From: an uncultured Syntrophaceae bacterium
GTDB lineage: Bacteria > Desulfobacterota > Syntrophia > Syntrophales > UBA2210
Assembly: GCA_964540715.1 (NCBI GenBank)
Contig: CAZINZ010000004.1
Span: 1 to 62,830, forward strand
Length of the DNA stretch: 62,830 nt
Direction of reading: 5' to 3'
Below, piece after piece: positions 3,175 through 58,391 of this stretch. Both the position numbers and the translations under genes were made by a program. Position 1 is the stretch's first letter. Every line of letters starts with the position of its first letter. The notes below the pieces were generated by a model. It ran no database searches, had not been told where the DNA came from, and worked only from the letters and a program-made list of their open reading frames with translations.

Positions 3175-3249
3175 TCAGATTAAATGCTATTGTGAATTTC
3201 CCGGCAACAGGGTGTAAAAAGTTGGACTTCCTTTCAAACGTAGCGTTGC

Positions 3250-3278
3250 AACATATTCTCACCATCTTGTTTTGTCAA
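3250..3278 (-). promoter_or_regulatory. Putative sigma70 promoter of the oxidoreductase operon
   Basis: Minus strand TTGACA (3278-3273), 17 nt, TATGTT (3255-3250). Confidence 0.6.
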
Positions 3279-3656
3279 GGCTTTTATTGGTACTTAGTTT
3301 TATTGGTACTGTCAGAAGCAATTAATATGTCCGGAGTTGTAGCACGTAAACTGTCCGGTTAAGATGAGTCATCGGGAGCTGACTCATGAGATGGACAGAG
3401 ATACTATCTGATAAATCAGACGATGCTGAATATTTATTCGACGTGAATATGCGCCGGCTAAATCACCTGTCAGTTTTTCATAAGGAGGTGGAACTTTATA
3501 TGGGTTTTTGCGCAGGATATTAATCAATGCTTCAGCTTTCTGTTTGAGGCCGGAAGCAGATAGTTTAGTTGCATCCCTCCTCAGGAATCAGTTGCAGGTT
3601 TGTTCAGGAATGGGTGGCAGGTTTGGGCAAGAATCTGCAAAGAATGTCGAAATTAT

Positions 3657-4262: not shown

Positions 4263-4354
4263 ATATGCCCGTCCTTTGTGATGCACTTTGTAACAGAAAG
4301 ATTAAAAAAATGCGAGGCAGATCTTCTGGTCACACTGACAGTAAGGGGGATGGT

Positions 4355-4780
4355 TTAAAAAAAGCCGTTTCCGAATGAAAGAGTTCCACGCTCGCCGGTG
4401 AGTCTTGTGTCTATGTGTGTGGGTGGAAATGTTGTGCCGTACATGCCGGCAGCGGTTGCCACGGAATCGCCCATTTCCAGGGCGTTCGCATCAAGATCAT
4501 GGGCAATTAAGGAACATCCGAATTTTTCTTTAAAATATGGCGCCGAACCGATGTGATCTATGTGACAATGGGTTAGGATCAGCGTTGATATTCTGGCTGG
4601 GTCCCTGTCGAGGGCTTTTATATTTTTCACAAGTCGATGCGAAGTCCTGCCCGCTCCGGAATCAATCATAATCAACTCATCACTGCAATCGATAATAAAA
4701 GAGGTTGCGTCCTCCGGGTGTGATATGTCGGGTCCCCCTGTTATATATACGCAATCGGCAATTTTTCTCTCCTGTTTCAT
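4355..4780 (-). pseudogene. C-terminally truncated metallo-beta-lactamase-fold hydrolase
   Basis: 141 aa with 'IDSGAG' and 'THCHIDHIG' motifs, but stops before the downstream H(T)PGH and D/H metal ligands; I found no continuation in the other two frames. Confidence 0.65.
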
Positions 4781-4796
4781 GATGATTCACCACTTC

Positions 4797-4841
4797 ATTT
4801 CATGTAAAGGGTGTTATTTTGAATGTTAATAATGACTCAAC
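4797..4841. repeat. 45-bp exact direct repeat, copy 1
   Basis: ATTTCATGTAAAGGGTGTTATTTTGAATGTTAATAATGACTCAAC, identical to 5275-5319. Confidence 0.97.
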
Positions 4842-4885
4842 ATAAGATTGCTGGTTGATCCGGCATGGTTACTTTTTCAAAAGAA

Positions 4886-4913
4886 ACCCGGGAAGTAGCT
4901 GCGCTTCCCGGGT
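4886..4913 (-). terminator. Intrinsic terminator
   Basis: 10-bp perfect stem ACCCGGGAAG/CTTCCCGGGT, 8-nt loop, followed on the minus strand by TTCTTTT. Confidence 0.8.
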
Positions 4914-5015
4914 AAGAATGTGCTCGCCGATCAGGATTTCGTCGGACTTGATTTAGCCGGCCTTACAGGGTTTAAGCTCGAATCGGAGGAGGTTTGATTC
5001 GTTCTTGAGTAATTA

Positions 5016-5197
5016 GTACAGCAAACTTCGTGTCAGAGATCGGGTGTCTGTCTAAGTGTCTGAAATATAGTTATCCTTTTTACAGGTACCATGATAATTG
5101 ATTTTCTGGTTACCTGGAATGGTGGAACAAAATGTCGAAATAAACCGAAGTGCATGTGAAAATACCGTAAGAAAATAAAGATCAGAGTTTGCTGTAC
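5016..5197. mobile_element. 182-bp segment bounded by a perfect 12-bp inverted repeat (MITE-like, unassigned)
   Basis: GTACAGCAAACT at 5016-5027 and AGTTTGCTGTAC at 5186-5197; no ORF spanning it and no clear target-site duplication. Confidence 0.35.
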
Positions 5198-5274
5198 AGT
5201 TGAATGGTTAAGTCGTTTAGGAAATAAGGGAGTCAAATCAATACATTAGAATTTCAATTCAATCGAGTGTCTGA

Positions 5275-5319
5275 ATTTCATGTAAAGGGTGTTATTTTGA
5301 ATGTTAATAATGACTCAAC
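5275..5319. repeat. 45-bp exact direct repeat, copy 2
   Basis: Identical to 4797-4841; runs into an 8-nt tandem array ACTCAACT-ACTCAACT-ACATAACT (5313-5336). Confidence 0.97.
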
Positions 5320-5547
5320 TACTCAACTACATAACTACTTATCGATGTCTGAACTTCATGTTCGGGAGGCCTTCGGGCAAAAAACGACATAATTGTCGAG
5401 CCGGGGAAAACGGGGCCAATCCCTTGATAGAAATAACATCGGTCCTGGAACATGGGAGATATCAGTATCTGGGCAGTCTGAATTCCGACAGAAAAGGAAA
5501 GTATATGCTGTCGTAAGGGCGCACCCATTTTTTATTATTCTGAACAA

Positions 5548-7257
5548 TTACAGAATCACATTCAATATTCCCCCGACTGCGAGGGACGATGTCAGCATTA
5601 TGCCGGTCGATTTCATAAAGTCTTTCAAGCCCAGCTCTCTGAACAGTACCACGACGGTGGCAATACATGGAAAAGACATGGTCAGGACAACGCTGCCTAC
5701 GACCATCTGTTTGGCCGTCATCGGGGATAATGCCAGCATTCCGAGAGCGGCATCCTTGCGGAGTAATCCTATAATAATCGCTGTAACCGACTCTTCTGGC
5801 AGGCCAAGTACACCCTTTATTACGGGAGCTGTGAAGTCGGCTATATAGTTGAATATTCCTGAGACAAAAAGTATGTTAATAACCAGCACCGCCGCCAATA
5901 TTATCGGGACGGCCTCTATTAGAAAACCGCGTGTCCTTCCCCAGAGCTTCTGTATGATCGTGCCCCATGGAGGGATGCGGTATGGGGGAATTTCGATGAG
6001 GAGTTCGGGGCTGAATCCCTTTAACAGTCGATTAAGAATTATTCCCAGGATTATCCACACGAGAAGCAACGTCGCATAAACGATTGCCACATATTGTCCG
6101 CCATACTTTCCAACCAGACCGAAAATCATTGCCTGGGCGGAAGCGCAGGGTACCGCTATCGATATCAGCGTTGCGGCTATGAACCGCTCCCTTTTGCTTT
6201 CAAGTACTCGTGTTGCCATTACGGCCGGCACATTGCATCCAAACCCCAGCAGGGATGGTATAATCGCGAAGCCGTGCAACCCGACTTTATGCATTGCGGT
6301 GTCGAGAAGTACCGCGAGACGTGGCAGGTACCCGGTGTCTTCAAGGATACCGAGGATAACATAAAAGGATATGATATATGGGAGTACCATGGCAAGGGGC
6401 ACATAAAGGCCGCTGCTCAACAGGCCAAAGGATTCAATGAAGTGGATTTCTCCGTCAAACAGTTTGCCTACTATGACATCATGCAACAAGCCGCTCTTCC
6501 CCATTAACGCGCTGAGTTTCATCAACGCTGGCAGCCACAGGAAATTGAATATGGGATCAAACAAATAGTTTATCAGGAATTCGCCTAAGAAGCGTATTAC
6601 TATAAAAGAGCCTGACAGGACTGCCGCGGCCATAAATATACCCGATACAGGCTTTACGCTTGCGTCCTCGAGACGTTCAAACCATCGGTGATGCCTGTGT
6701 GATCTCTGCTGTACCTGATTTGTTATATACCCTACGAAGGACCAGCGTTCATCGCGGTTTCTCACCGTAGAAGATGGTGATACGGCTTTGGAAATACCTG
6801 TTACAAGATCCTTTATTCCCTGACCGGTCAGACCTGATGTGGGGATAACAGGTATTCCGAGGATTTCGTTGAGTTTTTCAAGGTTGATGCTTATCCCGCG
6901 ATGTTTTGTGTCGTCCCACATATTCAGGGCGATTATCATGGGGATTTCCTTTTCCATTAACTGTAGTGTCAGGTAGAGATTTCTTTCGAGGTTTGTCGAG
7001 TCAACGACATTAATTACAATATCGCCCGTCTTGAGCATTTCAGAGGCAATTCTTTCGGCTTCACATGTGGGCTCAAGGGTATATGTTCCGGGCACATCAA
7101 TGATCTCAACCTGCCTGCCGTCTATTTTCATGAAACCGCTTGTATAGTTGACAGTAGTCCCGGGATAATTGGATGAGATAACGCGTACCCCCGTGAGCCG
7201 GGAAAAGACGACACTTTTGCCGACATTCGGATTGCCCATAAGCAGGATTTTCATCAT
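5548..7257 (-). CDS. feoB: Ferrous iron transporter B
   Basis: G1 'GNPNVGKS', G2 'NYPGTTV', G3 'DVPGTY', 'NMWD'; membrane part with 'GFGCNVPA' and 'PCASAQ' gate motifs. Confidence 0.95.
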   Translation of the reverse strand: MMKILLMGNPNVGKSVVFSRLTGVRVISSNYPGTTVNYTSGFMKIDGRQVEIIDVPGTYTLEPTCEAERIASEMLKTGDIVINVVDSTNLERNLYLTLQLMEKEIPMIIALNMWDDTKHRGISINLEKLNEILGIPVIPTSGLTGQGIKDLVTGISKAVSPSSTVRNRDERWSFVGYITNQVQQRSHRHHRWFERLEDASVKPVSGIFMAAAVLSGSFIVIRFLGEFLINYLFDPIFNFLWLPALMKLSALMGKSGLLHDVIVGKLFDGEIHFIESFGLLSSGLYVPLAMVLPYIISFYVILGILEDTGYLPRLAVLLDTAMHKVGLHGFAIIPSLLGFGCNVPAVMATRVLESKRERFIAATLISIAVPCASAQAMIFGLVGKYGGQYVAIVYATLLLVWIILGIILNRLLKGFSPELLIEIPPYRIPPWGTIIQKLWGRTRGFLIEAVPIILAAVLVINILFVSGIFNYIADFTAPVIKGVLGLPEESVTAIIIGLLRKDAALGMLALSPMTAKQMVVGSVVLTMSFPCIATVVVLFRELGLKDFMKSTGIMLTSSLAVGGILNVIL

Positions 7258-7493
7258 GTCTGCTTGTCCACCTCAATAAATATCTTTCCGGCCATGCCGA
7301 AACCTATAGCCACTTTTGTTGTGTCTATCCGGATAGTGACGGGTCCATGTAACAACATTGAACTTACTTTTGATATCTTTTTGCCCGTTCTGATTCCAAG
7401 AGAGTTAAGACGGTTAATCAATCCCTGTCCGCCCCTGATTTCATGTACGATGCCGCTCTCTTCTGTGTTCATATCATTCAGAGATTTAATCAC
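7254..7493 (-). CDS. feoA: Ferrous iron transport protein A
   Basis: 79 aa SH3-like FeoA pattern 'RLNSLGIRTG...GPVTI...VAIGFGMA'; 4-bp overlap with feoB. Confidence 0.92.
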   Translation of the reverse strand: MIKSLNDMNTEESGIVHEIRGGQGLINRLNSLGIRTGKKISKVSSMLLHGPVTIRIDTTKVAIGFGMAGKIFIEVDKQT

Positions 7494-7666
7494 TATATAC
7501 AGTTTTCCTTCCTTGAAACAATCAGAGGACAGGCAACTTCAAGCCCCATAACTCAAAGGATCCTGTCCCCATATTCTGACATGCTACCACATCTACACGA
7601 CTATATGTAAGTGGTGGTACAAAAATGTTTGTTTGTAATGATTGTTCGAATCAGGCCGGTGTTTGG

Positions 7667-14664: not shown

Positions 14665-15111
14665 TTATTCTATGTGATATTTCTTCAGAGCAAAAAAGAT
14701 TTCTTTTTCTTTTTTTTGCATTCTTTCAGCCTCCTCGGATATTTCATGATCATATCCCTGCAGGTGCAGAATGCCGTGGATCATCAGGTAATCGATCTCA
14801 TCTTCAAGGGAAAGGCCTCCGGTCTTCGCGTCCCTTAAGGCTGTTTCAGTGGATATAATAATGTCTCCGAGCATATAGGGATTAACGTCTCCGAATTCTC
14901 CCTCGTTCATGGAGAATGCTATCACGTTCGTGGGATAATCCCTGCCGAGGTATTGTCTGTTTATTTCTGTTATGCCTTCATCATCCAGCAGAGTCAGGCT
15001 GATTTCGCTGTCTTCATTCTCAATAACACTCAGAATTATACTTAACGAATGTTCAGTTCGCGGAAGGTCTATTTCTACCTTTGTTTGCCTGTTGTTTGCA
15101 AGAATCTTCAT
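14665..15111 (-). CDS. ybeY: rRNA maturation endoribonuclease YbeY
   Basis: 'NRQYLGRDYPTNVIAF', 'LGDIIIS', 'HGILHLQGYDH'. Confidence 0.95.
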   Translation of the reverse strand: MKILANNRQTKVEIDLPRTEHSLSIILSVIENEDSEISLTLLDDEGITEINRQYLGRDYPTNVIAFSMNEGEFGDVNPYMLGDIIISTETALRDAKTGGLSLEDEIDYLMIHGILHLQGYDHEISEEAERMQKKEKEIFFALKKYHIE

Positions 15112-15117
15112 TGATTG

Positions 15118-17415
15118 TTATCTTGAAGGTTGTTGATACTCTATCCGGCGATGGAATATACCGGTAAGGATCCTCGTAAATGTCTCGTTAATCTTTTTCA
15201 GTTCGCGGAAGGTGAGGTCTGATTCATCGAGTTGTCCTTCTTCCATCGCATATTTTATCCTGTCGTCAACGAGATTCTTTATCCTTGCGGGTGTTGGATT
15301 GGTCAGGGTCCTTGACGAGGCCTCCACGATATCTGCGAGAAGGACAAGGCCAGCCTCTTTATTCTGAGGCCTTGGGCCTGAATATCGAAAATCATTTTCC
15401 TGGACTGACTGACCGGAATCTTTGCTGTCCTCTTTAGCTTTGTCATAGAAATAGCGTACAAGCCCCGTCCCGTGGTGCTGTTTAATAATATCCGCTATTG
15501 GCTTTCCCAGATTATGCTCATTCGCGAGTTCACATCCATCCTTGACATGCGAAATAATGACGAGGCTACTCATTTGGGGGGAAAGGTTATCATGTCTGTT
15601 TTTCCAGCCAGACTGATTTTCTATAAAATACTGTGGCTTTCTCATCTTTCCGATATCATGATAATAGGCGCTTACCTTTGCCAGCATAGAGTTTGCACCG
15701 ATTTCTTCCGCTGCCGCCTCCGCGAGAGATGCCACGATTACACTGTGGTGATATGTCCCTGGCGCCACCATGAGCAATTCCTGGAATATCGGTTGATTCA
15801 GGTTGGCCAGTTCGAGGAGTTTGATGTCTGTTGTATAGCCAAACAGGGATTCAAATAGAGGGACAAGACCTGAGACCATAAACCCTGATAAAATACCCCC
15901 TGTGAGACCCATTGCCAGTTTTAAGGGTGTCTCAATTATAAAGAGGTTGCCGGAGAGAAGAGAGAGACAGACTATAGTTCCCGTGTTGACTATACCAACA
16001 AGCAGCCCGGTTTTGAAAAATGCCGAACGTCGCTCGCAATGGATAATACAGTGCGCCGCAACTGCGCTTCCAACGAGAGAAAGCAGAAATATTGAAGACT
16101 TGTTTTCAAACAGAAAAGCTATCACGAGGGAAGAAAAGACTGAAAATATCAAACCTTCGTTTCTGCCGATAAGGATTGCAACGAGCATAGTGCCGATGGT
16201 GAAAGGTATGGCGTAAACAAAGATGGATGCCGGGGCAAGCTTGGACGTGATATCTATGGAGTCGCATATGAATATGCCCGCTTTTACGATGATTACCTGA
16301 AGTATAATCGCAATGCTCATGAAGATAACATCGGTGACTACAGTTTTTCCCAAGCGGAATCGTAAGCTGGCCATACGGTAAAAAATGACTGACAGAAGCA
16401 CAATTGTAAGAAATATTCCTGAAAATATGGAGATATTTATAAACTTGTTTCCCTCTTGGCCTTTATAAAATGCGTCCAGCTTATCGAGATCATCTGGTGT
16501 GATTTTCTCGCCTTCCCGAATAATCATTTCGTTTTTTTGAAGTTTGTACAGTGCTGGTTTTACATTATCGAAGACGAATTGTTTGCTTTTCTCTGTCGCG
16601 TTTTTCGCAAATGTGAGATTAGGTATCACGGCCTTTTGGGCAAGCGATATTACAATTCTATTCGGTCTTTTGGGCTTGAAGATTGTCTTTGCTTTGTTAC
16701 GCAGGATGGTGTTCATTTTTCCTGCGTCCAGTATCGACGACAGTTCATCCAGTCCCCGTTCCTCCTGATTATCGATGTCACGTATTATGATGCCTTTAAC
16801 ATTATGGAGACTCAAAATGTCCCAGCTGCTTATCAGGCTGTCTTCATAGGAGGAATAAACAAGCTTTGCAATGTCGCTATATAAATCAAGGGGGAACCCT
16901 TTCTTGCTAAGTGTTTTAAACTCATAGGCTGTAAGGTTTATTCCAGAAATATCTTCGAATTCCTTTTTTAGATTTGCGGCAGTTTTTTTCCTGTCAGGCA
17001 ATTTAGATTTTTCCTCTGCATTTTCTCTCATGTATAGGAATGCCTTTGACATGGCCGCATCGATCTTTGCTGGTATGTTGCTGTCATAATCATAGATGGG
17101 CCTTGTGTTTTCGATGGCCTCCGCCCTTTTCAGTTCTGTGGCCGCCTTGTCTACCACGAGGAAGTCACGATCAGCCTGTATATCCTGCGAAATAATCGAT
17201 CCCACTTTGTATTCGGGTGGAGCCATATTAAGAATTTGTGGATAAAGCATGATGGCAAGAATCAGGCTCATGGAAAATGCAATGGCGGACTTCCATGAAT
17301 AGATCTCGGCGGCAAACCAGTCCACACCTTTGATTCCTGATGCTCCGTTATTTCGTATTCGTGTAAGGGGGGTAGTTTTTAAGGTCATAGATTTGTTGTT
17401 GTGCCGATTACTCAA
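15118..17415 (-). CDS. 7TM-HD (7TMR-HDED/HDIG) membrane phosphohydrolase, PgpH/YqfF family
   Basis: Large extracytoplasmic region, about 7 TM helices, 'APGTYHHS', 'YYHDIGK', 'YFIENQ', 'QHHGT', 'LADIVEA'. Confidence 0.92.
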   Translation of the reverse strand: MSNRHNNKSMTLKTTPLTRIRNNGASGIKGVDWFAAEIYSWKSAIAFSMSLILAIMLYPQILNMAPPEYKVGSIISQDIQADRDFLVVDKAATELKRAEAIENTRPIYDYDSNIPAKIDAAMSKAFLYMRENAEEKSKLPDRKKTAANLKKEFEDISGINLTAYEFKTLSKKGFPLDLYSDIAKLVYSSYEDSLISSWDILSLHNVKGIIIRDIDNQEERGLDELSSILDAGKMNTILRNKAKTIFKPKRPNRIVISLAQKAVIPNLTFAKNATEKSKQFVFDNVKPALYKLQKNEMIIREGEKITPDDLDKLDAFYKGQEGNKFINISIFSGIFLTIVLLSVIFYRMASLRFRLGKTVVTDVIFMSIAIILQVIIVKAGIFICDSIDITSKLAPASIFVYAIPFTIGTMLVAILIGRNEGLIFSVFSSLVIAFLFENKSSIFLLSLVGSAVAAHCIIHCERRSAFFKTGLLVGIVNTGTIVCLSLLSGNLFIIETPLKLAMGLTGGILSGFMVSGLVPLFESLFGYTTDIKLLELANLNQPIFQELLMVAPGTYHHSVIVASLAEAAAEEIGANSMLAKVSAYYHDIGKMRKPQYFIENQSGWKNRHDNLSPQMSSLVIISHVKDGCELANEHNLGKPIADIIKQHHGTGLVRYFYDKAKEDSKDSGQSVQENDFRYSGPRPQNKEAGLVLLADIVEASSRTLTNPTPARIKNLVDDRIKYAMEEGQLDESDLTFRELKKINETFTRILTGIFHRRIEYQQPSR

Positions 17416-18406
17416 TGCCTGCTGTCGATTTATTTCTGTCGATATGGTTATATGCCCGTATTATATCCGGGACGAGACGGTGTCTTACCACATCTATCTC
17501 AGAAAAGTAAACAAAACGGATGCCCTTCACCTTTTTCAGAATACTCTCCGCTTCTACGAGACCGGAGATCTTACCGGATGGAAGGTCGGTCTGGGTCACG
17601 TCACCGGTTATGACGGTCTTCGACCCTAAACCGAGTCTCGTTAGAAACATTTTCATCTGTTCCGAGGAGGTATTCTGGGCCTCATCAAGGATTACAAAGG
17701 AATCATTCAATGTCCTTCCCCTCATGAACGCCAGCGGAGCAACCTCGATTGTTCCCTTGCTTATCAATGCAGACGCCCTTTCGAAATTCATCATATCGTA
17801 GAGGGCATCATACACGGGTCTCAAGTAGGGATTAACCTTTTCAGATAAATCGCCAGGGAGGAATCCAAGCTTTTCCCCGGCCTCAACAGCGGGTCGCGTG
17901 AGTATTATCCGGTTTACACTTTTTTCGAGCAGTGCCCCAACAGCCATGGCCATGGCAAGATAGGTCTTGCCGGTTCCAGCAGGGCCTATACCGAAAACCA
18001 TGTCGTATGTTCTGATAGAATCTATATACGATTTCTGCGCCATACTTTTTGGAGTGATTACCTTCTTTTTTGACGACACAAAGACGGTGTCAAGAAAGAC
18101 GGACTCAAGATTAGCGGAGCTGTTTGTTGAAAGTATCCTGTGTGCATAATCTATGTCGGTGGGATAGACAGGGTAGCCTTTTTCAATGATGCTATATAAT
18201 TGAGACAAAAGATTCTTTACGAGATCGCAGGCAAGCTTGTCTCCCGATATGAAAACTGTGCTTCCCCTGGAGTTTAGCGTCACTCCTCCAAGCTTTTCGA
18301 CAACCTTTCGGTTCCTGTCATATTCTCCCAGAAGTATCTTCAGATTGTCGTTGTCCGGGAAGGTTATCTCTCTGGCAGAAACGTTTTGATGGGTTTTTGC
18401 TTCCAA
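17408..18406 (-). CDS. phoH: PhoH-family ATPase
   Basis: 'GPAGTGKTYLA', 'LTRPAVEAGEKLGFLPGD', 'LDEAQN', 'DVVRHRLV'; start (TTG 18406) is uncertain. Confidence 0.93.
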   Translation of the reverse strand: MEAKTHQNVSAREITFPDNDNLKILLGEYDRNRKVVEKLGGVTLNSRGSTVFISGDKLACDLVKNLLSQLYSIIEKGYPVYPTDIDYAHRILSTNSSANLESVFLDTVFVSSKKKVITPKSMAQKSYIDSIRTYDMVFGIGPAGTGKTYLAMAMAVGALLEKSVNRIILTRPAVEAGEKLGFLPGDLSEKVNPYLRPVYDALYDMMNFERASALISKGTIEVAPLAFMRGRTLNDSFVILDEAQNTSSEQMKMFLTRLGLGSKTVITGDVTQTDLPSGKISGLVEAESILKKVKGIRFVYFSEIDVVRHRLVPDIIRAYNHIDRNKSTAGIE

Positions 18407-18567
18407 ATAATGTGCAACCTGTCTGCGTGATGGCTTAATCCTATCACACCTTAAACACATATCCAACAGGTATTGTCTGATACAGGAGACGGGGATACAT
18501 AGGCAGATACTCACTGTCAATGCCAATTGACATTACCCGAAACAGAATGCAGACGGGGTAATTCAAA

Positions 18568-18596
18568 TTGACAAAACAGGAAGTACCTGATAGATA
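18568..18596 (+). promoter_or_regulatory. Putative sigma70 promoter for 18782-19774
   Basis: TTGACA (18568-18573), 17 nt, TAGATA (18591-18596). Confidence 0.55.
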
Positions 18597-18781
18597 TCTC
18601 GCATAGATTAGTAGATTTACAGAGTAAATCTGACCTGAAAAAATGTCGCAGGGACATTAGCTGTCAGAACTTTGATGTCCCGTGTCGCATGAACGGGGGA
18701 ATGCGTGAGTCTTCAACTCAATATTGAGTCAGCTTTTCATTGGAGATAAATTCTGTATTACTGAAAGGAGGTATTGACCAA

Positions 18782-19441
18782 ATGTTCAAAAGTAAGGGGG
18801 TATTGTTCCTGTCCTTTTTTTCCATTATGCTTTTTATTATCACTTTGACCATTGCATCTGCAGACGTGGTGATATTCCTCAAGAATGGCGAGGTTGTCGA
18901 GGTTCCTGTAAATAAGGAGGACATCATCGGGATTTCATTCGAGGGGAGTGGAGGAACTGGTGCCAGTGTTGCCTGGGATTTTGAAACTGGAACTCTGGCA
19001 GGATGGGAAAGTAAGGGGTCGTCTTTTGATAATCAGCCTACATACGGAGACAACCCGACGGCACGTAATCGAGGACAAGCCTCTGGGCATGAGGGAAACT
19101 ACTGGATCGGCACATTTGAAAACCGCCTCAAGGCCGAAGACAATGCGGGAGCAGTCCAAGGTGATGGCCCGAAGGGAGTGCTCACGTCTGAATCTTTTGT
19201 CATCGAGAAACGCTCCATCACATTTCTCATAGGGGGAGGGTGTGATATGAACGCGGTACGGGCTGAACTTTTAATCAATGGAGCGGCTGTTCTCAAGACC
19301 ACGGGAAAATGTACGGAAACGATGGAACGTCAGACATGGGATGTTTCTCCATACATAGGTCAAACCGCCCGGATAAGGCTCATCGACGCATCCAGTGGCG
19401 GGTGGGGTCATATAAACTTTGATGATGTGAGATTCAAATAA
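18782..19441 (+). CDS. Secreted protein with C-terminal jelly-roll/CBM-like domain, function unknown
   Basis: AAGGAGGT SD; signal peptide ending 'IASA-D'; short N-domain, GSGGTGAS linker, then 'WDFETG...FLIGGGC...WDV...GGWGHINFDD'. Confidence 0.85.
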   Translation: MFKSKGVLFLSFFSIMLFIITLTIASADVVIFLKNGEVVEVPVNKEDIIGISFEGSGGTGASVAWDFETGTLAGWESKGSSFDNQPTYGDNPTARNRGQASGHEGNYWIGTFENRLKAEDNAGAVQGDGPKGVLTSESFVIEKRSITFLIGGGCDMNAVRAELLINGAAVLKTTGKCTETMERQTWDVSPYIGQTARIRLIDASSGGWGHINFDDVRFK

Positions 19442-19489: not shown

Positions 19490-19774
19490 ATGCATGTAGT
19501 GAGTATTGAGAAGCTTGGAGAAAAGATATATGGCTGCCTCGATGACGGTGTCAACTATTGTACTTTTTCCATTGAGCCTGATGGCGTAATTGAATATGAA
19601 CAGAGTTATTATAAGAGTGAATACAACGACTATGATAGCTTTGTGCTTTCCTACGCAGAGACAGATCCCGGCACGTGTTTTCTTGAACATCCGGTGGAAA
19701 TAGGTAGCAGTGACATGAAAAGCCTGACTTATGAAATTGTGCTGGGTGTATGGAAGGATATCTGGGAAGGTTAG
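19490..19774 (+). CDS. Hypothetical acidic protein (94 aa)
   Basis: AAGGAGG SD 8 nt before ATG; D/E/Y-rich; same strand, 48 bp after the secreted-protein gene. Confidence 0.75.
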   Translation: MHVVSIEKLGEKIYGCLDDGVNYCTFSIEPDGVIEYEQSYYKSEYNDYDSFVLSYAETDPGTCFLEHPVEIGSSDMKSLTYEIVLGVWKDIWEG

Positions 19775-19784: not shown

Positions 19785-20237
19785 TTAAGTACTTTGCCGC
19801 AAGCGAAAGTAGTCTGAAAGTATCTCACCGTGATCAAACACAATGGGATTCGGAAGGGTATCTTCAGTAAAAAACCCGATTTCGGCGGCATCATCCGCGG
19901 CCATGGGGATACCCCTTCCAGTAGCAATAAACACGGTGGTTATGGTGTGCTGGCGCGGGTCCCTGTCGGGTCTCGAGTATGTTCGCATCTGACATTTAAT
20001 GATCACATCAAGGGAAGTTTCTTCCCTTGCTTCCCTGACGGCGGCGTCCTCCAGCGATTCTCCATAATCGACAAAACCTCCCGGGATCGCCCAGCCTGTT
20101 GGTTCATTTTTTCTCATTATTAATGCGATTCCCTTTCCCTCGACCTCGATAATGATATCAACCGTTGGCGTTGGGTTACGGAAGGACTCCAACTCCGCAC
20201 CGCACTTCCAGCAAATATTCTTTGATTTTATACCCAT
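19785..20237 (-). CDS. NUDIX hydrolase (ADP-ribose pyrophosphatase-like)
   Basis: Nudix box '[24 protein letters not shown]'; 'RDPRQHT'. Confidence 0.93.
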
Positions 20238-20469: not shown

Positions 20470-20498
20470 TTGACATGGGTAGGTTATTTATTTACTGT
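20470..20498 (+). promoter_or_regulatory. Putative sigma70 promoter of the PTS-rimI-pyr operon
   Basis: TTGACA (20470-20475), 17 nt, TACTGT (20493-20498). Confidence 0.5.
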
Positions 20499-20534
20499 CC
20501 ATGCAAAATTGGATATTCGGGGAGGGGGGGGGAG

Positions 20535-20945
20535 ATGATAGGTGTACTGATTATAACTCACGGCAATCTCGGGTATGAGATGATAAAGGTTGCCGAGATG
20601 ATAAAAGGTGATATGCAAGGGATTACCCCGGTTTCGCTCGACGCGACAAAGGGTGTGGATGATATCAAGAAGGAGATTACCTCGGCGATAAAAAAAGCTG
20701 ATTCGGGGAAAGGTGTGCTTATTATGACGGATCTGTTTGGTGGTACGCCTTCAAATATCTCGTTATCATTCCTGAAAAAGGGAAAGGTAGAGGTTGTTAC
20801 CGGTGTGAATCTTCCAATGCTGCTCAAGATATCAGATATCAGAGAGGAAAATAAGCTTGCTGAATTTGCCGATCTCGTGAAAGTTTATGGTAGAAAGAAC
20901 ATCTATCTCGCCAGCGAGATATTAAACCGTAAAGCCGATGATTGA
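20535..20945 (+). CDS. PTS mannose/fructose-family EIIA
   Basis: 'IITHG' phospho-His, 'TDLFGGTPSN', 'TGVNLPML'. Confidence 0.93.
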   Translation: MIGVLIITHGNLGYEMIKVAEMIKGDMQGITPVSLDATKGVDDIKKEITSAIKKADSGKGVLIMTDLFGGTPSNISLSFLKKGKVEVVTGVNLPMLLKISDIREENKLAEFADLVKVYGRKNIYLASEILNRKADD

Positions 20946-21474
20946 TCCTCGTGACTCTCCCACAGTTAGTTTCTCCCCCCTGATAAGAATTGACAACAGG
21001 CTTGTACATGGTCAGATACTCGAGGCGTGGATCCCCTTTATCAGTGCCTCGCACATAGTTGTGGTGAATGACGATGTCGCGGACGACCCGTTCAGGGAAT
21101 CGATCATTAAGATGGCGGTGCCCCGGGAAATCGAAATACGTATCTATAACATTGAGGAGTTCGCCAGAAACATCACCTGCGAGAACTACACAGAAAAGGG
21201 GATCGTTTTGTTTTGCAGTATCGGCGATCTGATGCTGGCATACAGGTTTGGTTTCAGATTCAGCAGCTTGAATATAGGCAATGTTTATAATGATGACTAT
21301 GTGTGTCAGCCGACAACTTCAGTATCTTTGAGTGAAAATAATATGCAGGATCTGATGTTGCTTTCTGAATCAGGTGTCATGATTGAGATTAGATGTGTTC
21401 CGAGGGACAAGCCTGTTGATTTCCTTGATGTGGTAAGGCAGTTAGATAATTCCTCACACAGCCAGGATATATGA
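20938..21474 (+). CDS. PTS mannose/sorbose-family EIIB
   Basis: 'RIDNRLVHGQI' with the catalytic His; 'LNIGN'. Confidence 0.9.
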   Translation: MIDPRDSPTVSFSPLIRIDNRLVHGQILEAWIPFISASHIVVVNDDVADDPFRESIIKMAVPREIEIRIYNIEEFARNITCENYTEKGIVLFCSIGDLMLAYRFGFRFSSLNIGNVYNDDYVCQPTTSVSLSENNMQDLMLLSESGVMIEIRCVPRDKPVDFLDVVRQLDNSSHSQDI

Positions 21475-21475
21475 T

Positions 21476-22162
21476 ATGTGGTTGAATTTCCTTGAAGTGG
21501 CCCTTCTGGGTGGAGTTATATGTCTGGACAGAGTGGCTTTGCAGGTCATGATATCTCGGCCCCTTGTTGCTGGCACTGTCATAGGGCTTGCGCTTTTGGA
21601 ACCATTCACGGGACTGATAGTAGGGGCATTCATAGAGTTGTTGTGGATCGACAGATCGCCGGTTGGGTTGTATATACCACCCAACGATACAATCGCCGCC
21701 GTACTGGCAACGGCAGGGGCAATACTTGCTGGAAGAGATATGGTCTCTCATCCACGCGAAATGATCGCCCTGGCGATCATTTTGTTTCTCCCTTTCGGTT
21801 TCCTTGCTCAACGGGTTGATACATGGATAATAAAATCAAACGTCAGAATTTCCGAAAGGGTTGTTGAGTATGCCCGGCTGGGCGATATCAAACGGCTTGC
21901 AAGGACGCATATGAATGGCCTTGTGAAAACATTTGTGGGTGCATTTTTTGTTATTCTTGTATGTCTTGCGCCGGGTGTAGCGATTCTTAATTGGGCATTT
22001 CCCATCCTTCCTGAAAGAGTTCTCAAGGTCCTTTTGTATGCCTACTTCTTTATTCCCATCCTCGGTATCGCAGTAGCCTTGAGCACCATTAAACTGCGTG
22101 GCGCTGTCCCGGTATTCGCAGGACTTTTCCTTCTGGCCACTCTGATTTTGAAGATCTTTTAG
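21476..22162 (+). CDS. PTS mannose-family EIIC
   Basis: 'ISRPLVAGTVIG', 'GAFIELLW', 'GLYIPP'; multiple TM helices. Confidence 0.85.
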   Translation: MWLNFLEVALLGGVICLDRVALQVMISRPLVAGTVIGLALLEPFTGLIVGAFIELLWIDRSPVGLYIPPNDTIAAVLATAGAILAGRDMVSHPREMIALAIILFLPFGFLAQRVDTWIIKSNVRISERVVEYARLGDIKRLARTHMNGLVKTFVGAFFVILVCLAPGVAILNWAFPILPERVLKVLLYAYFFIPILGIAVALSTIKLRGAVPVFAGLFLLATLILKIF

Positions 22163-22177
22163 ACGGGAGATGCCGGC

Positions 22178-22648
22178 ATGGCGATTATGCCTGTAAATTT
22201 TGAAACGCGCGATATGACTGCTGACGATATGGTTGATGTCCTGTCGATTGAATCTGTTTCCTTTCCCACACCATGGTCAGAAGGCATGTTTCGGGAGGAG
22301 ATGCAACACCCCTTCTGTCATGATCTTGTGGCCCATGTAGCGGATCATATTGTCGGTTATATATGTTTTGCGATAGTCTCCGATGAGGTTCATCTCAGAA
22401 ATCTCGCTGTCCTTGAAGACTGGAAGAGGCAAGGGGTGGCCTCAACTCTCCTGTCGGGGATGATAGCAATAGTCTCCGGCACAGGCGCCCGATACGGCAC
22501 TCTCGAGGTAAGAAAATCGAATATGGGTGCATTAGAGTTATACAATAAATTCGGTTTTGTGATAAAAGGAATAAGACCTTCATATTACTCAGATACACGC
22601 GAAGACGCACTTATTATGTGGGCGGATTTTCAGATGATAAAACCATGA
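22178..22648 (+). CDS. rimI: Ribosomal protein S18 alanine N-acetyltransferase
   Basis: 'SFPTPWS', 'RQGVAS', 'LEVRKSN', 'IRPSYYSDTREDALIM'. Confidence 0.93.
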   Translation: MAIMPVNFETRDMTADDMVDVLSIESVSFPTPWSEGMFREEMQHPFCHDLVAHVADHIVGYICFAIVSDEVHLRNLAVLEDWKRQGVASTLLSGMIAIVSGTGARYGTLEVRKSNMGALELYNKFGFVIKGIRPSYYSDTREDALIMWADFQMIKP

Positions 22649-23466
22649 AATCATATATCTCCGCGACAGTTTTTTCTCAGAGGGAAACAGCCAGAGGGCA
22701 TTTTCTGATGGCCTTAAAGACGTCCGCATCTTTCAGAGAATCTCTTCCAGGTCAGTTCATCATGGTGAGAACGGATACCAACGACGGCCTGTTTCTTCCC
22801 AGACCTTTCAGTATCTATTCCGTGTATTCCCGCGGTGGCGATACTTTTGTTGAGATACTTTACAAGGTTGTGGGGAAGGGGACAGAGGTCTTTTCCGGTT
22901 TTACTCAGAACGATGTCCTGAACATACTCGGGCCCCTTGGAGGAGGATTTGACGTCCCGTCGGCATGCAAAAAAATATTTCTGATAGCCGGTGGTGTCGG
23001 TATAGCCCCCCTTTCGTTTCTGGCCCAGCGCTGCAGGAAAGAGATTCATGGTGCGGAAATTACCTGCTACATGGGAGCGGCAAGTTCGGAAGCGCTTTTG
23101 GGGGTGGACAGAATTGAGGAGAGTTGCTCTGTGGTGAAAATAAGCACGGATGATGGAAGCAGGGGGTATTCCGGTCCGGTAACAGAGCTCTTCAGGTGCG
23201 ATATGGACCTCTACGTGGATGATACCGTACATATATATTCATGCGGTCCGAATCCAATGCTCAGAAGCCTGCACGAATTATTGAAGGGTCGTCAGATTGC
23301 CTGCGAGGTTTCTCTTGAAGAGCGTATGGCATGCGGCATAGGGGCCTGTCTCGGGTGTGTTGTGAAAACAAAATCCGGGGGGGTGAGCGACGGTCCGGCA
23401 AGAGTCTGTAAGGAAGGGCCGGTGTTTGATATCAACAGTGTAGATTTTGGTGACGACAGCGGATAG
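22645..23466 (+). CDS. pyrK: Dihydroorotate dehydrogenase electron transfer subunit
   Basis: 'PGQF', 'RPFSI', 'GPLG', 'AGGVGIAP', 'CGPNPM', '[11 protein letters not shown]...VCKEGPVF'. Confidence 0.93.
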
Positions 23467-23470
23467 TGAC

Positions 23471-24385
23471 ATGAAATTAAAAATGGGTGTTGATATAGGA
23501 GGCCTGGCGCTGAAAAACCCGGTCATGACCGCATCGGGCACATTCGGTTATGGTGAGGAATATGCCGATTATCTTGACCTTAATCGTCTCGGTGCCATCG
23601 TTGTCAAGGGATTGTCCCTAAATCCGAGAGAGGGAAATTTGTCGCCGAGGACCATGGAAACAGCCTCCGGAATGCTCAACGCCGTCGGCCTTCAGAACGT
23701 GGGTGTAAGGGCCTTTATTGACGACAAACTGCCCTGGCTCAGCAGGGTCGATTCCGCAGTAATTGTAAATATATTCGGAGAGAGTCTTGAGGATTACGTG
23801 AAGGTTGCGGAGATTCTCAGCAATGCCGAGGGGGTGGCCGCGGTTGAAGTAAACATATCCTGTCCCAATGTCAAGAGGGGAGGGATCGCATTCGGTTCCG
23901 ACCCGGTAGTCGCCGGGGAGGTGACACGGGCGGTGAAGGATGTCTCGCGGATTCCCGTCATCGTGAAGCTGACTCCGAACGTGACGGACATAACTGAAAT
24001 CGCCAGAAGTGTTGAATCCGCCGGGGCTGACGCCATTTCTCTCATCAACACGATTACTGGAATGTCGGTGGATATCGAAAAGAGAATGCCGCACCTGGAA
24101 AACATCACCGGCGGCCTGTCCGGACCGGCAATAAAACCGGTCGCACTCAGGATGGTGTGGGAAGTTGTGAACGCGGTTTCCATCCCGACTATAGGCGTAG
24201 GTGGAATAATGAACGCTCGCGACGCCATCGAATTTCTCATTGTGGGTGCAAAAGCAGTCCAGGTCGGAACGGCTAATTTTCTTAATCCGGGAGTAACCGC
24301 CGACATTATCGATGATATTGAAAGGTTCATGTCTGAGAATGGTATTGGTGATATAAACGACCTGACAGGGACACTCAGGATATAG
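23471..24385 (+). CDS. pyrD: Dihydroorotate dehydrogenase 1B catalytic subunit
   Basis: '[11 protein letters not shown]', 'MLNAVGLQN', 'NISCPNV', 'KLTPN', 'INT', '[10 protein letters not shown]'. Confidence 0.96.
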
Positions 24386-24445
24386 CGGGTTTTCTGAAAG
24401 TTCCAGCGGTACTATCATTTTCAACCCCTGGAAAACGGAGCCGTA

Positions 24446-25849
24446 GTGACAGCAACAGTGAAGACAGAAGCGTACGATGTGATAATACTCGGTGCGGGAC
24501 CTGGAGGATATGTCGCCGGTATCCGGGCCGGTCAGCTTGGTCTGAAGGCCTGTATTATAGAAAGGGACACCCTTGGGGGTGTGTGTCTGAACCGGGGATG
24601 CATTCCCACGAAGAGCCTCATTCACCAGGCCGGGATTTTTCATTCTCGTCTTGAGCTGGAAAAGATGGGGCTTGCCATTGATTCTAAAAAGTTTGATTAC
24701 GGATATGTGCAGGATCAATCCAGGGCGGCAGTCCGGTCACTGGTTAAAGGTGTCGAGTATCTGCTGAAAAAAAACAAGGTTGATCATATCCATGGCACAG
24801 CCAGAATCGTTTCAGGAAACAGTGTGATGCTTGATGATCAAACCGAAATCACAGGGAAAAATATTGTAATTGCAACGGGATCACGCCCTTCGCAGATACA
24901 GGGTTTCGAGTTTGATGAAAAACAGGTTCTTTCTTCGAATGGAATCCTTTCTATCAATGAGCTCCCCGACAGTCTGATTATACTTGGAGCGGGTGCCATC
25001 GGATGCGAGTTTGCCTATATCATGAACCGATTCGGTGTAAAGGTGCATCTCGTTGAGATGGAAAAACATATTCTGCCTGTTGAAGATGCACGGGTAGTTG
25101 CCGTTCTCGAAAGGTCATTTAAGGATAGCGGCATTAATGTGATTACCGGGGCACGCGCGAATTCCTTAGAGAAGGCATCCGGGAAGGTGGCTGTTTCCCT
25201 TACGGACAAAGATGGCAACTCATTGAAAATAGATGCGGAAAAAGTTTTATGTGTGTTCGGGAGGACTCCGAATACCGATAAAATCGGCCTGGAAAATATC
25301 GGGTTGAAAACCGAAAAGGGCTATATCCCGGTTGGCGATTACTATCAGACACTTATTGGGGGGGTCTATGCCGTCGGGGACGTGGTAAAAACGCCGCTTC
25401 TGGCTCATGTCGCTTCTAAGGAAGGTGAAATTGTCAGTGAATATATTGCCGGCCGTTCACCTCAGTCTCGAATTGATTTAAATGAAATACCTTCAGCTGT
25501 TTATTGTGAGCCGCAGCTGGCAAGTTTCGGCCTTAGAGAAAACCAGGCAAAAGAACAGAACATCCCCTACAAAAAGGCGATTTATCCGTACAGGGGAGTG
25601 GGTAAAGCTGTTGCAATTGGTAAAATCGAAGGCGTTGTTAAAACCCTCTATGACCCGGAGACAAATGAGATTTTAGGCGCCCATATCGTGGGGCATGATG
25701 CCACGGAACTGATCCATGAGATCCTTCTGGCAAAAACTTCTGGATTGTTGCCTGAAAATATTGCCGGGATGATCCATGCGCATCCAACCATGTCCGAGGT
25801 AGTGATGGAACAGATGCGTGCAGTTGATGGTCAGCCGATACATATGTAG
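24446..25849 (+). CDS. lpdA: Dihydrolipoyl dehydrogenase
   Basis: 'GAGPGGYVA', redox disulfide 'GGVCLNRGCIPTK', 'GAGAIG', C-terminal 'HAHPTMSE'. Confidence 0.95.
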   Translation: MTATVKTEAYDVIILGAGPGGYVAGIRAGQLGLKACIIERDTLGGVCLNRGCIPTKSLIHQAGIFHSRLELEKMGLAIDSKKFDYGYVQDQSRAAVRSLVKGVEYLLKKNKVDHIHGTARIVSGNSVMLDDQTEITGKNIVIATGSRPSQIQGFEFDEKQVLSSNGILSINELPDSLIILGAGAIGCEFAYIMNRFGVKVHLVEMEKHILPVEDARVVAVLERSFKDSGINVITGARANSLEKASGKVAVSLTDKDGNSLKIDAEKVLCVFGRTPNTDKIGLENIGLKTEKGYIPVGDYYQTLIGGVYAVGDVVKTPLLAHVASKEGEIVSEYIAGRSPQSRIDLNEIPSAVYCEPQLASFGLRENQAKEQNIPYKKAIYPYRGVGKAVAIGKIEGVVKTLYDPETNEILGAHIVGHDATELIHEILLAKTSGLLPENIAGMIHAHPTMSEVVMEQMRAVDGQPIHM

Positions 25850-25876
25850 GATTTGATTAAAAAAGTGCCGGTATCC

Positions 25877-26026
25877 TCATAGCTTCTTTTTCAGGACCAG
25901 GCGGGCGAAGTGTTCAAAAGACCTGTCGAAACAGCAGCAGGGGAGGTCCCGAATTTTCAGGTGTTACCTTATGCTTATGCAGTCGCAGCATGTTCCCTTG
26001 TGGCGCAGCGTGGTCTCTAATTCCAT
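25877..26026 (-). pseudogene. Decayed small Cys-rich protein gene (DUF6485-like, from memory)
   Basis: One frame reads MELETTLRHKGTCCDCISIR*HLKIRDLPCCCFDRSFEHFARLVLKKKL* with an internal TAA at 25966-25964. Confidence 0.5.
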
Positions 26027-26049
26027 TACGAATGCCCTGATTCATACCG

Positions 26050-27522
26050 CTATTTTTTCAATCTGTTTATCGCATTCAATCCCGCCGAAAGCATTTTAAC
26101 CGCCAGAGGGCCGGATTCCTGATCCGAGCCGGTTGACAGGGGCGGCATGATACATTGCGGACCGTAAAGATCGTTCATCATTTTGGCAACTTCTTTTTTA
26201 ACAAGCGCGCGGAAAGGGACATGCGCGATCATGCCGTACATGGCCGCGTTACCGCTTGTCGCCAGTTCGGGATTACGACGTACAGCCTCCACACCTTTTT
26301 GAAGGTCTGCCAGATATTGATCTGCAATGGCGGCATGCCGCGGTGTTATCATGCAGTGCAGGGCATCAGGTCTCTGGAGACGGTCCACCAGCCAGCCCTT
26401 TTCTTCGAGCTGGTCGCCTACGGCAAAAATATTCACATCTTTATCTTCTGATGTATAGGCGAAAACACCCATGGCGGGTTTTCCCAGAATCTTGAGCCCG
26501 CCGATGGCCTCAATCCCGGCTTTGAGTTTATCGGTGGTATCCATGATGGCGCGGGCAATATTCAGATAACCGTCCATGCCGATGGCGTTCAGTGCAGCCC
26601 AAGCGGCCGCAATGGCACCGCCGGGACGGGTACCAAGAAGGGCGGGGGAAGCAAAGACTCCGCCGGGCCAGTCCGTACAGATAAAAAACTGATGCTTCAG
26701 ATAGTCAATATTGCGGTAGAGCAAAGTTGAGGCGCCCTTGGCGCTGAAGGCATACTTGTGGACGTCGGCCGAGATCGAAGTCACGCCGGGAACCCTGAAA
26801 TCAAAAGGCGGCACCTCATAACCCAACCGCTCGACAAAGGGCAGCAGAAATCCTCCCAGACAGCTGTCCACGTGAAAAGGAATCCCGCGCGAAAGTGCGA
26901 TCTCTCCCAGCTGCTCAATCGGATCGATCACCCCGTGCGGGTAGGATGGGGCTGAAGCAACTATCATGATGGTATTGCGGTTGATTTTCTTTCGCACGAC
27001 ATTTACATCGGCCCGGCAGTCGCTATCTACCGGCACATGCACCATCTTGACACCGAAATATTTCGCGGCCTTTTCCCAGGCGACATGAATAGTCTCAGGA
27101 GCGATCATTTCCGGCCGGCGCAATGGAATTACGCGTCTGGCGCTGGCCATCTCGCGGTAGGCAAGTACAGGTAACAGACAGCTTTCGGTGCCGCCTGAAG
27201 TCATGACGCCAGCTACCTGGTCGTCACCGTTCAACATCGAAGCGGTCATGCGCACCACCTCGTGTTCAAATCGCTTCAGACTGCGAAAGGCCATCGGGTT
27301 CAGGGCATTTTCACTGAAATACATACCATAGGCCTCTTTCAGAAAATCGGTATGTTCTTCACCCAGATAATACACAAGACTGAATATTTTATTATCGCGG
27401 TAGTTCACATCTTCTCCGGCAAAGCCTTGCAGCCTGTCCAGCACCTCTTTACGCGGGATGCCTTTTTCTGGGATGCTCTTCATAGTATTCTCCCTTTCTG
27501 CAGTATCTGTTTGTTTCGTCAT
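26050..27522 (-). CDS. Group II PLP-dependent enzyme, sphingosine-1-phosphate lyase (SPL/Dpl1)-like
   Basis: 'ENALNP', 'MTSGGTES', 'HVAWEKAA', 'SAPSYPHGVIDPI', 'HVDSCLGGF', PLP lysine in 'SADVHKY', 'GTRPGG'. Confidence 0.88.
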   Translation of the reverse strand: MTKQTDTAERENTMKSIPEKGIPRKEVLDRLQGFAGEDVNYRDNKIFSLVYYLGEEHTDFLKEAYGMYFSENALNPMAFRSLKRFEHEVVRMTASMLNGDDQVAGVMTSGGTESCLLPVLAYREMASARRVIPLRRPEMIAPETIHVAWEKAAKYFGVKMVHVPVDSDCRADVNVVRKKINRNTIMIVASAPSYPHGVIDPIEQLGEIALSRGIPFHVDSCLGGFLLPFVERLGYEVPPFDFRVPGVTSISADVHKYAFSAKGASTLLYRNIDYLKHQFFICTDWPGGVFASPALLGTRPGGAIAAAWAALNAIGMDGYLNIARAIMDTTDKLKAGIEAIGGLKILGKPAMGVFAYTSEDKDVNIFAVGDQLEEKGWLVDRLQRPDALHCMITPRHAAIADQYLADLQKGVEAVRRNPELATSGNAAMYGMIAHVPFRALVKKEVAKMMNDLYGPQCIMPPLSTGSDQESGPLAVKMLSAGLNAINRLKK

Positions 27523-58361: not shown

Positions 58362-58391
58362 AAATATAGAATACATACAGGAGGGTAAGAT

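Follow-up and report, generated by a model that had tools for sequence, protein, structure and literature searches.

The question raised by this locus is what a small protein encoded between phoH and a NUDIX gene does in an uncultured Syntrophaceae bacterium, and why similar proteins occur in corals. The gene lies on the plus strand of the window, i.e., of the whole stretch of 62,830 nucleotides (nt) that was analyzed (contig CAZINZ010000004.1). The original prediction, made from the letters of the DNA, had described its product as a stand-alone secreted beta-sandwich protein that resembles animal extracellular modules. Our analysis shows an ordinary single secreted-protein gene, whose product is the free-standing form of a jelly-roll accessory or lectin-like module in a large uncharacterized family. 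We propose, with about even confidence, that the product is a Sec-exported, non-lipidated envelope or extracellular protein of ~21 kDa, and that its disulfide-stabilized jelly-roll would serve as a carbohydrate-recognition (lectin-like) module resembling the carbohydrate-binding modules (CBMs).

In the list of open reading frames (ORFs) of the window, the gene has two alternative starts, TTG at 18740 and ATG at 18782, and ends at 19441. The ATG is the likely start because a Shine-Dalgarno sequence (AGGAGG, 18766-18771) precedes it at a spacing of 10 nt. Translation from this codon gives a product of 219 amino acids (aa). Each of the motifs quoted in the original prediction was found in it: DVVIFLKNGEVVEVPVNKEDIIGISF (residues 28-53), the linker EGSGGTGAS, WDFETG, FDNQPTYGDNPTARNRGQ, QGDGPKGVLTS, FLIGGGC, TGKCTETM, and GGWGHINFDD. 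The predicted layout of a signal peptide, a short N-domain, a Gly/Ser linker, and a domain of ~160 aa was also recovered, the domain comprising ~157 aa (residues 63-219). The first 27 residues read as MFKSK, a hydrophobic stretch, and the motif ASA/D, and residues 4-20 form a helix in the AlphaFold model; this segment is a putative Sec signal peptide. There is no Cys in residues 1-60 and the cleavage context is IASA/DVV, so the protein does not qualify as a bacterial lipoprotein. The N-terminal mini-domain that follows was modeled with two strands (29-32 and 38-41), the mean predicted local distance difference test (pLDDT) values of its 10-residue blocks being 61-79. Among the sequences compared, the mini-domain was present in 108 of the 151 short family members (≤260 aa) and otherwise only in three matches of 262-318 aa, one of them a protein and two of them stop-to-stop ORF fragments. 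The 27-aa mini-domain thus appears to be specific to short, stand-alone bacterial proteins.

The domain matched a profile of its family with E=1.6e-87 over profile positions 2-158, and a word-indexed protein search returned 683 homologues at E≤1e-3; the similarity is therefore far beyond chance. An exhaustive profile search yielded 4,954 clusters at 50% identity with E≤1e-3, 736 of which had E≤1e-30, and at least 593 domain loci were confirmed in species-representative genomes. The closest full-length relatives belong to metagenome-assembled genomes of Syntrophaceae (83%), followed by relatives in Desulfobacteraceae and Nitrospinota (52-63%). Copies with 35-50% identity were found in Planctomycetota, Verrucomicrobiota, Nitrospira, Cyanobacteria, Myxococcota, Acidobacteriota (Vicinamibacterales), Bacteroidota, Poribacteria, and others, and the domain is present in at least 10 bacterial phyla. 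The window domain carries the motif set of the family (FE, QPT·GDNP, YWIG·E, GD·P·G·L·S, FLIGGG, E·M, and G·WGHIN·D). Invariant residues are Q85-P86, D90, R95, W108, E113, D128, the F148-L149-x-G-G-G turn, E179, D202, and W208-G209-H210-x-N212. The family profile detected no second copy (paralogue) of the domain elsewhere in the window.

Despite its size, the family was met in the databases almost exclusively under the name 'hypothetical protein'. A literature search by member accession or keyword returned nothing specific on it, and a protein search with a copy linked to glycoside hydrolase family 32 (GH32) retrieved 13 proteins with no informative names. No model of the local Pfam collection reached its threshold with the window protein; the best was the HpiC1-like PF22825, with 18.2 bits against a cut-off of 27 and only the last 40 residues covered. 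A relative with two domain copies scored 26.7 bits with this model, below the same cut-off. The window protein had no match in the NCBIfam copy, no Pfam match to CBM_4_9, CBM6, or CBM35, and no match to MAM (PF00629) or Cleaved_Adhesin (PF07675) listed at E≤1. Some relatives scored 20.8-23.3 bits with CBM_4_9 (cut-off 25.9), an echo at the N-terminal strand. Judged by these comparisons, this appears to be a large domain family that lacks a curated model. A precomputed annotation, PF26817.1, was seen only on two multi-copy members (P0270 and P0271) and is absent from the local Pfam and from the literature searched. Other listed members do not carry it, and it is probably a marginal match and not a model of the domain.

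A domain-only AlphaFold model had a pLDDT of 95.9 and a predicted template modeling score (pTM) of 0.91. When the full-length and the domain-only models were submitted to Foldseek, the same PDB neighbours were retrieved. Best were the cleaved-adhesin domains K1-K3 of the gingipain Kgp (best E 2e-5, TMq 0.55). These were followed by MAM domains (neuropilin-1, scavenger receptor-C, RPTPmu, meprin, and enteropeptidase), with values that are borderline for a common fold (E 4e-5 to 8e-4, TM 0.48-0.51, root mean square deviation [rmsd] 6-7 Å), and further neighbours were CBM35, CBM6, and CBM27 modules, hyaluronan- and porphyran-binding modules, reelin repeats, and the Stig cyclase 6a9f. The models place the domain among the jelly-rolls of the MAM/adhesin/CBM neighbourhood, and no solved structure is a close relative. 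The beta-sandwich in the original prediction was thus supported by the structure models, and the resemblance to animal modules held in the sense that the nearest folds include MAM domains beside bacterial adhesin and CBM modules.

Each of these neighbours shares some properties with the window domain and differs in others. The gingipain modules (PDB 4itc, 3m1h, and 3km5) are likewise secreted bacterial jelly-rolls and serve in adhesion, but the identity is 16%, the rmsd ~7 Å, and the Cleaved_Adhesin model was not matched. MAM domains (neuropilin-1, 5l73; RPTPmu, 2c9a; meprin; enteropeptidase) are extracellular animal modules of what is probably the same jelly-roll topology class, with TM ~0.5. 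Their Cys pattern differs and the Pfam match is lacking. Kinship would be at most at the superfamily level. CBM35, CBM6, and CBM27 and the Stig cyclases (HpiC1-like, PF22825) belong to the same fold class, and CBM-like modules are appended to glycoside hydrolases, as is the domain studied here. All sequence matches to them stayed below the curated cut-offs, however, with TM values of 0.37-0.51, and sugar binding by the domain is a property that it would have by analogy.

Pfam scans of relatives showed that the domain is a mobile module of ~157 residues which recurs across architectures. DUF7133 was encoded in the same ORF at 32 of 80 reference-genome loci (23 of these 32 also with a 3-keto-disaccharide hydrolase domain), GH32 at 10, and PASTA repeats at 5. 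The GH32 loci bear out the accessory module of GH32-type glycosidases named in the original prediction. In these fusions, found in Planctomycetota and Verrucomicrobiota, the domain is located N-terminal to the GH32 catalytic domain, and the GH32 C-terminal domain is present, too. DUF7133 fusions additionally contain cytochrome c, HEAT, and 3-keto-disaccharide hydrolase domains. Other partners were PKD, F5/8 type C, CsgG/LpoB/TolB_N/FlgO-like envelope domains, PEP-CTERM, peptidase M19, caspase-like C14, ankyrin repeats, and PMT_2. Besides the sugar-active enzymes and PASTA, the partners PKD, F5/8-C, CsgG/LpoB/TolB_N, PEP-CTERM, M19, C14, and PMT_2 are all extracytoplasmic. Up to 9 matched domain stretches per protein were seen in the exhaustive profile search.

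The modules linked to GH32 beta-fructofuranosidase-type and to DUF7133/3-keto-disaccharide-hydrolase proteins are homologous to the window domain, with all signature motifs in common and 35-50% identity. In contrast to them, the window protein has no catalytic partner (Pfam detected no GH32 catalytic beta-propeller, PF00251, in its 219 aa, and GH32 fusions occur only in distant relatives). It carries the 27-aa mini-domain and the pair Cys154-Cys177, which the enzyme-linked copies lack. The motif QPTYGDNP..RNRGQ, which had been thought to mark a special variant, does not do so: in a cross-architecture alignment, it was also found in GH32-, PASTA-, PKD-, and M19-linked copies.

Instead, a Cys pair sets a subfamily apart. 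Over 434 domain copies, both Cys residues were present in 243, neither in 189, and only one in 2. This strict co-occurrence makes a C154-C177 disulfide probable, in agreement with the pair suspected in the original prediction. The subfamily comprises the Syntrophaceae/Desulfobacteraceae-type proteins, the CsgG/LpoB fusions, and proteins of Hexacorallia, and the window protein belongs to it (C154 after FLIGGG, C177 in TG·C). The pair was found in 31 of the 32 copies from named cnidarian proteins and is the sole mark of the subfamily common to bacteria and cnidarians. Searches from the cnidarian side and cluster names revealed members in Porites, Stylophora, Pocillopora, Acropora, Oculina, Desmophyllum, Exaiptasia, Actinostola, Nematostella, and Actinia. 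All are Hexacorallia, of which at least 10 genera are thus represented, and Oculina alone has at least 10 paralogues. The cnidarian affinity had been proposed in the original prediction, and these ten genera, with intron-bearing genes among them, confirm it. Rather than a widespread, vertically inherited, characterized bacterial family without eukaryotic affinity, we found an uncharacterized one with such affinity.

Cnidarian and bacterial copies share 45-68% identity. The mean identity between cnidarian and bacterial Cys-type copies was 57% (range 42-68%), that within the bacterial Cys-type copies was 63%, and that between cnidarian and non-Cys copies was 44%. The hexacoral proteins (e.g., Oculina ACROYT_G017106, Stylophora LOC111340271, and the 'mucin-5AC'-named XP_048578279.1 of Nematostella) contain one to many domain copies. 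Unlike their bacterial counterparts, they are encoded by intron-containing genes (in Scleractinia), are tandemly duplicated, bear an extra '…GDI·C·' tail at the C-terminus, and are fused to other domains; the mini-domain is absent. In cnidarians, the domain is fused in frame to EGF, PAN, ShK, F5/8-C, fibrinogen-C, and mucin-like regions.

How could such a protein work? Following signal-peptide cleavage at ASA/D, the jelly-roll would bind a glycan via loops with the family-wide invariant residues. E68 (of FE in the first strand) and D214 (in the last strand) probably hold a structural Ca2+. Structural Ca2+ is seen in many CBM and MAM-type jelly-rolls. The mini-domain, joined to the module by a flexible linker, probably serves to tether it to a partner in the envelope, because the same position is taken by a CsgG/LpoB/TolB-N-like envelope domain in sister proteins. 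In other phyla, sugar-active enzymes and PASTA/PKD surface proteins carry the module as an appendage at their N-terminus, which argues for a portable targeting or recognition module with the window protein as its free-standing form. That the protein binds glycans, holds Ca2+ at this site, and is tethered in this way is inferred, as is its cellular location.

Carbohydrate recognition is suggested by the combination of a location outside the cytoplasm, a jelly-roll fold of adhesin/MAM/CBM type, fusions to sugar enzymes and surface repeats, tandem repetition, and stand-alone forms. The nearest solved folds, as retrieved with the models, are binding or adhesion modules, and the sub-threshold sequence echoes (the HpiC1-like C-terminal strand, and the CBM_4_9 N-terminal strand in relatives) point to CBM-type families. 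The strict Cys coupling is as expected of an extracytoplasmic disulfide, and the partners found in cnidarians are typical of secreted recognition proteins. Several points weigh against this reading. No family member is characterized, and the PDB sequences gave no match with either the single sequence or the family profile (best E=0.27). The best structural matches are borderline, with TM 0.5-0.55, rmsd 6-7 Å, and identity ≤19%. A search for transcription evidence found no RNA runs containing the locus. It is an assumption of this reading that the invariant residues come together in one site.

A further point concerns the nature of these residues. Polar invariant ones are dense (D90, R95, E113, D128, E179, D202, H210, N212, and D214), and this density, together with the ~57% identity between bacteria and corals, is above what is usual for CBMs and would fit an enzyme or a specific small-ligand site. 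The jelly-roll itself could be catalytic, with a sugar or some other small molecule as its substrate; in that case, the stand-alone protein would be an enzyme, small and secreted. Such a role would be in line with the unusual conservation of these polar residues, R95 apart, across phyla and into corals and with the frequent stand-alone occurrence of the domain. Fusions, in contrast, place the domain N-terminally in proteins equipped with a catalytic domain of their own (GH32, M19, or C14). CBM-like folds can be catalytic, as illustrated by the fold neighbour 6a9f, a Stig cyclase and thus an enzyme, and by the weak HpiC1-like match, and the common fusion partner 3-keto-disaccharide hydrolase is a jelly-roll enzyme; the top fold neighbours, however, are binding modules. 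Its repetition, with several matched stretches in one protein and, in Actinostola, a long tandem array, is typical of binding repeats. We regard an enzymatic role as unlikely.

MAM and cleaved-adhesin domains bind proteins besides glycans. The domain could also be a protein-protein adhesion or oligomerization module of this type, i.e., an envelope scaffold or adhesin in bacteria and a cell-adhesion or matrix module in cnidarians. The MAM and Cleaved_Adhesin models were not matched and TM values reached only ~0.5, although the gingipain adhesin and MAM domains were the best Foldseek matches. The N-terminal 'DFE·G···W' and C-terminal 'I·FDD' strand pattern of the domain is presumably also that of MAM-type jelly-rolls. 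Fusion to the envelope-anchoring CsgG/LpoB/TolB_N domains, and to EGF and mucin-like regions in cnidarians, would suit a protein-binding module; the dominant bacterial partners, in contrast, are sugar-active enzymes, and no conserved neighbouring gene hints at a protein partner. This explanation, too, seems rather improbable to us.

If the module recognizes carbohydrates, its partners hint at the ligand: GH32 and 3-keto-disaccharide hydrolase suggest fructosides or disaccharides in the Planctomycetota/Verrucomicrobiota branch, which need not hold for the Cys-type branch. Knowing the ligand would annotate thousands of 'hypothetical' proteins and would explain the accessory module that GH32 and sugar-dehydrogenase-type enzymes carry in these two phyla. 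Since the family is present in reef-building corals, the ligand would also provide a handle on an expanded hexacoral gene family.

The cnidarian copies are genuine animal genes. In Oculina, the gene covers 8.8 kb, introns included, of a 64-Mb chromosome and lies between CHGN-, EGF-, and thyroglobulin-type genes. Each domain copy of this gene is split by an intron at one position, as is a further copy in the adjoining gene, and in Desmophyllum the domain intron is at the same position. Bacterial contamination of coral assemblies or convergence, with no cross-domain history, is therefore a very remote explanation of the similarity and effectively refuted. Contamination is common in coral holobiont assemblies and the phylogeny is weakly supported by bootstrap, but a chromosomal gene with animal neighbours and an intron shared by two corals, in-frame fusions to EGF, PAN, ShK, F5/8-C, and fibrinogen-C, and the occurrence in at least 10 genera speak against contamination, and a mean of 57% identity over ~157 residues plus a common Cys pair excludes convergence.

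In a neighbor-joining tree, the Cys-type sequences formed one clade, and the cnidarian copies were a sub-clade nested among the bacterial ones, with bootstraps below 35% for all key splits. Monophyly of the bacterial Cys-type sequences without the cnidarians was recovered in 0-8% of the bootstrap replicates. In Actinostola, the domains form an uninterrupted tandem array without an intron in the domain. An old transfer from bacteria to hexacorals is probable from the sequence comparisons, because the distribution in bacteria is broad and deep, the named eukaryotes are limited to hexacorals, the derived Cys pair is shared, and intronless arrays exist. The family is a candidate case of inter-domain gene transfer, after which introns would have been gained, genes duplicated in tandem, and domains shuffled. 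An attempt to date the transfer by a common intron position failed, since two scleractinians share the intron and the Actinostola array has none in the domain.

More tentatively, and with some doubt, we consider it possible that a Desulfobacterota-like (Syntrophaceae-type) glycan-recognition domain moved to an early hexacoral and grew there into a mucus, matrix, or immune-recognition family of corals and anemones, with the ligand still conserved. If this is true, the kept ligand would account for the ~57% identity across domains of life, and the window protein would be the closest free-living model for an uncharacterized family of coral lectins and would serve as the type of a new family resembling CBMs. 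An orthogroup automatically named 'glycosyl hydrolase ecdE' was reported to rise in corals exposed to white plague (PMC9524840). The automated name 'putative glycosyl hydrolase ecdE' is also carried by family members of Acropora and Nematostella, and the link to the coral-disease orthogroup is by name only. Membership of fungal EcdE in the family was not verifiable, as only automated names point there and papers speak just of a 'glycosyl hydrolase'. The cuticle proteins SWT and PPOD of Hydra were rejected as carriers of the same domain derived from horizontal gene transfer: SWT peptides contain none of the domain motifs, and PPOD is a beta-trefoil.

Two observations concern the organization of cnidarian copies. 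In Oculina patagonica (CM126638.1, positions 21767-26747 of locus L011), the neighbour of a two-domain gene carries a further copy of the domain, divided between exons in the same way, a sign of local tandem gene duplication; on the other flank is a chondroitin N-acetylgalactosaminyltransferase-type gene. The array of Actinostola sp. (JAUJYZ010001177.1, positions 3001-7646 of locus L177) is in one continuous reading frame with a repeat unit of ~1,370 nt (two domains), and two adjacent gene models were called in it.

Table. Positions in the window of the features of the gene and its product
Feature	Position	Strand	Basis or remark
Candidate promoter: TTGACA (18568-18573), 17-nt spacer, TAGATA (18591-18596)	18568..18596	+	Sequence reading; poor -10 hexamer
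5' leader of ~185 nt with Shine-Dalgarno sequence (18766-18771)	18597..18781	+	~83% nt identity to L003-L005 over leader and coding sequence
Predicted signal peptide, residues 1-27	18782..18862	+	Predicted signal peptidase I site ASA/D, no lipobox; sequence reading and model helix 4-20
N-terminal mini-domain, residues 28-54	18863..18943	+	Two short strands; family consensus DMKIFLKDGRVIKVPVNKEDIVSISFEE
Gly/Ser-rich flexible linker, residues 55-62	18944..18967	+	pLDDT <50 for residues 55-60
Jelly-roll beta-sandwich domain, residues 63-219	18968..19438	+	Profile E=1.6e-87; domain-only model
Cys154	19241-19243	+	Probable disulfide with Cys177
Cys177	19310-19312	+	Probable disulfide with Cys154
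Stop codon	19439..19441	+	Nucleotide similarity to relatives stops here

The genomic context was compared between the window and related loci. The domain gene is located between phoH (17408-18526, minus strand) and the NUDIX gene (19785-20237, minus strand), with an ORF of 94 aa (ORF94; 19490-19774, plus strand) in between. Contigs of the same population, which come from salt-lake metagenomes (all DNA runs), have the constant order ybeY-HD/7TM-phoH, domain gene, ORF94, NUDIX, and genes for EIIA, EIIB, and EIIC of a phosphotransferase system (PTS). Other species each show a different set of genes beside the homologue, and gaps of ~260-1100 nt are found 5' of the gene. None of the neighbouring genes of the window is present at the loci of the closest homologues (L003-L005, 85% aa identity; L012, 83%). 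The L003-L005 loci match the window from 18561 to 19441, i.e., the coding sequence and ~220 nt upstream of it, with ~83% nt identity. The blastn match of L012 starts within the coding sequence, and part of the L012 leader also aligns. With its own upstream block and without conserved neighbours, the gene probably acts alone.

ORF94, which had been regarded as a partner gene, proved to be a real conserved small gene that is linked to NUDIX and is not partnered with the domain gene. Its counterpart in a sister population (L097), with 81% conservation, adjoins NUDIX (79%; EIIA, 89%) at a site without the domain gene, and ORF94 is absent from all 12 homologue-bearing loci tested, including those of the closest homologues. 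ORF94 had no family match and was called in 81 blocks of the population's contig collection. The L097 locus is collinear with the window from ~25.8 kb down to ~19455, where it continues with genes that the window has at 57.8-60.4 kb (57800-60437). This comparison implies that the two populations differ by a rearrangement of ~38 kb, one boundary of which lies at the 3' end of the domain gene.

The domain gene is thus an autonomous unit at a rearrangement breakpoint. The original prediction that it was inserted between phoH and NUDIX was right in the location; as to the insertion, which is possible, only the synteny breakpoint at ~19455 and the differing contexts were seen. L097 lacks the gene at this locus, and L003-L005 and L012 carry a homologue in other contexts. 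A search of the region for a mobile-element signature returned only short repeats consistent with chance, and the composition was unremarkable. Since this is one monocistronic-looking, autonomous gene, the idea of an undescribed system had to be abandoned.

The leader of the gene was also compared. The nucleotide block common to L003 and L012 begins at ATTCAAATTGACA (~18561), just 5' of the TTGACA hexamer, and the leader sequence is kept in L003-L005 and partly in L012. A promoter scan did not call the TTGACA/TAGATA site and proposed an alternative, TTTACA-N17-AAAAAT, at 18616-18644. No riboswitch or known RNA was detected by Rfam in the 255-nt upstream gap, nor were tRNA genes or Rfam families at gathering score found in the whole window; no intrinsic terminator was predicted 3' of the domain gene. 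Two inverted repeats in the leader can form hairpins: AGATTTAC-AGA-GTAAATCT at ~18610-18628 and CCCGT…ACGGG at ~18680-18700. The counterpart of the second repeat in L003 (CCCCGC…GCGGGG) differs yet can pair, and L012 lacks that segment.

Directly upstream of the domain gene and divergent from it, the minus strand (14665-18526) carries the common trio of phoH, 7TM-HD (7TMR-HDED), and ybeY. Downstream, at 20475-22162 on the plus strand, genes for EIIA, EIIB, and EIIC of a mannose-family PTS stand in a row (PF03610, PF03830, and PF03609 in the gene calls of L092/L093), with no EIID called alongside, and are followed by genes for an acetyltransferase and for dihydroorotate dehydrogenase subunits.

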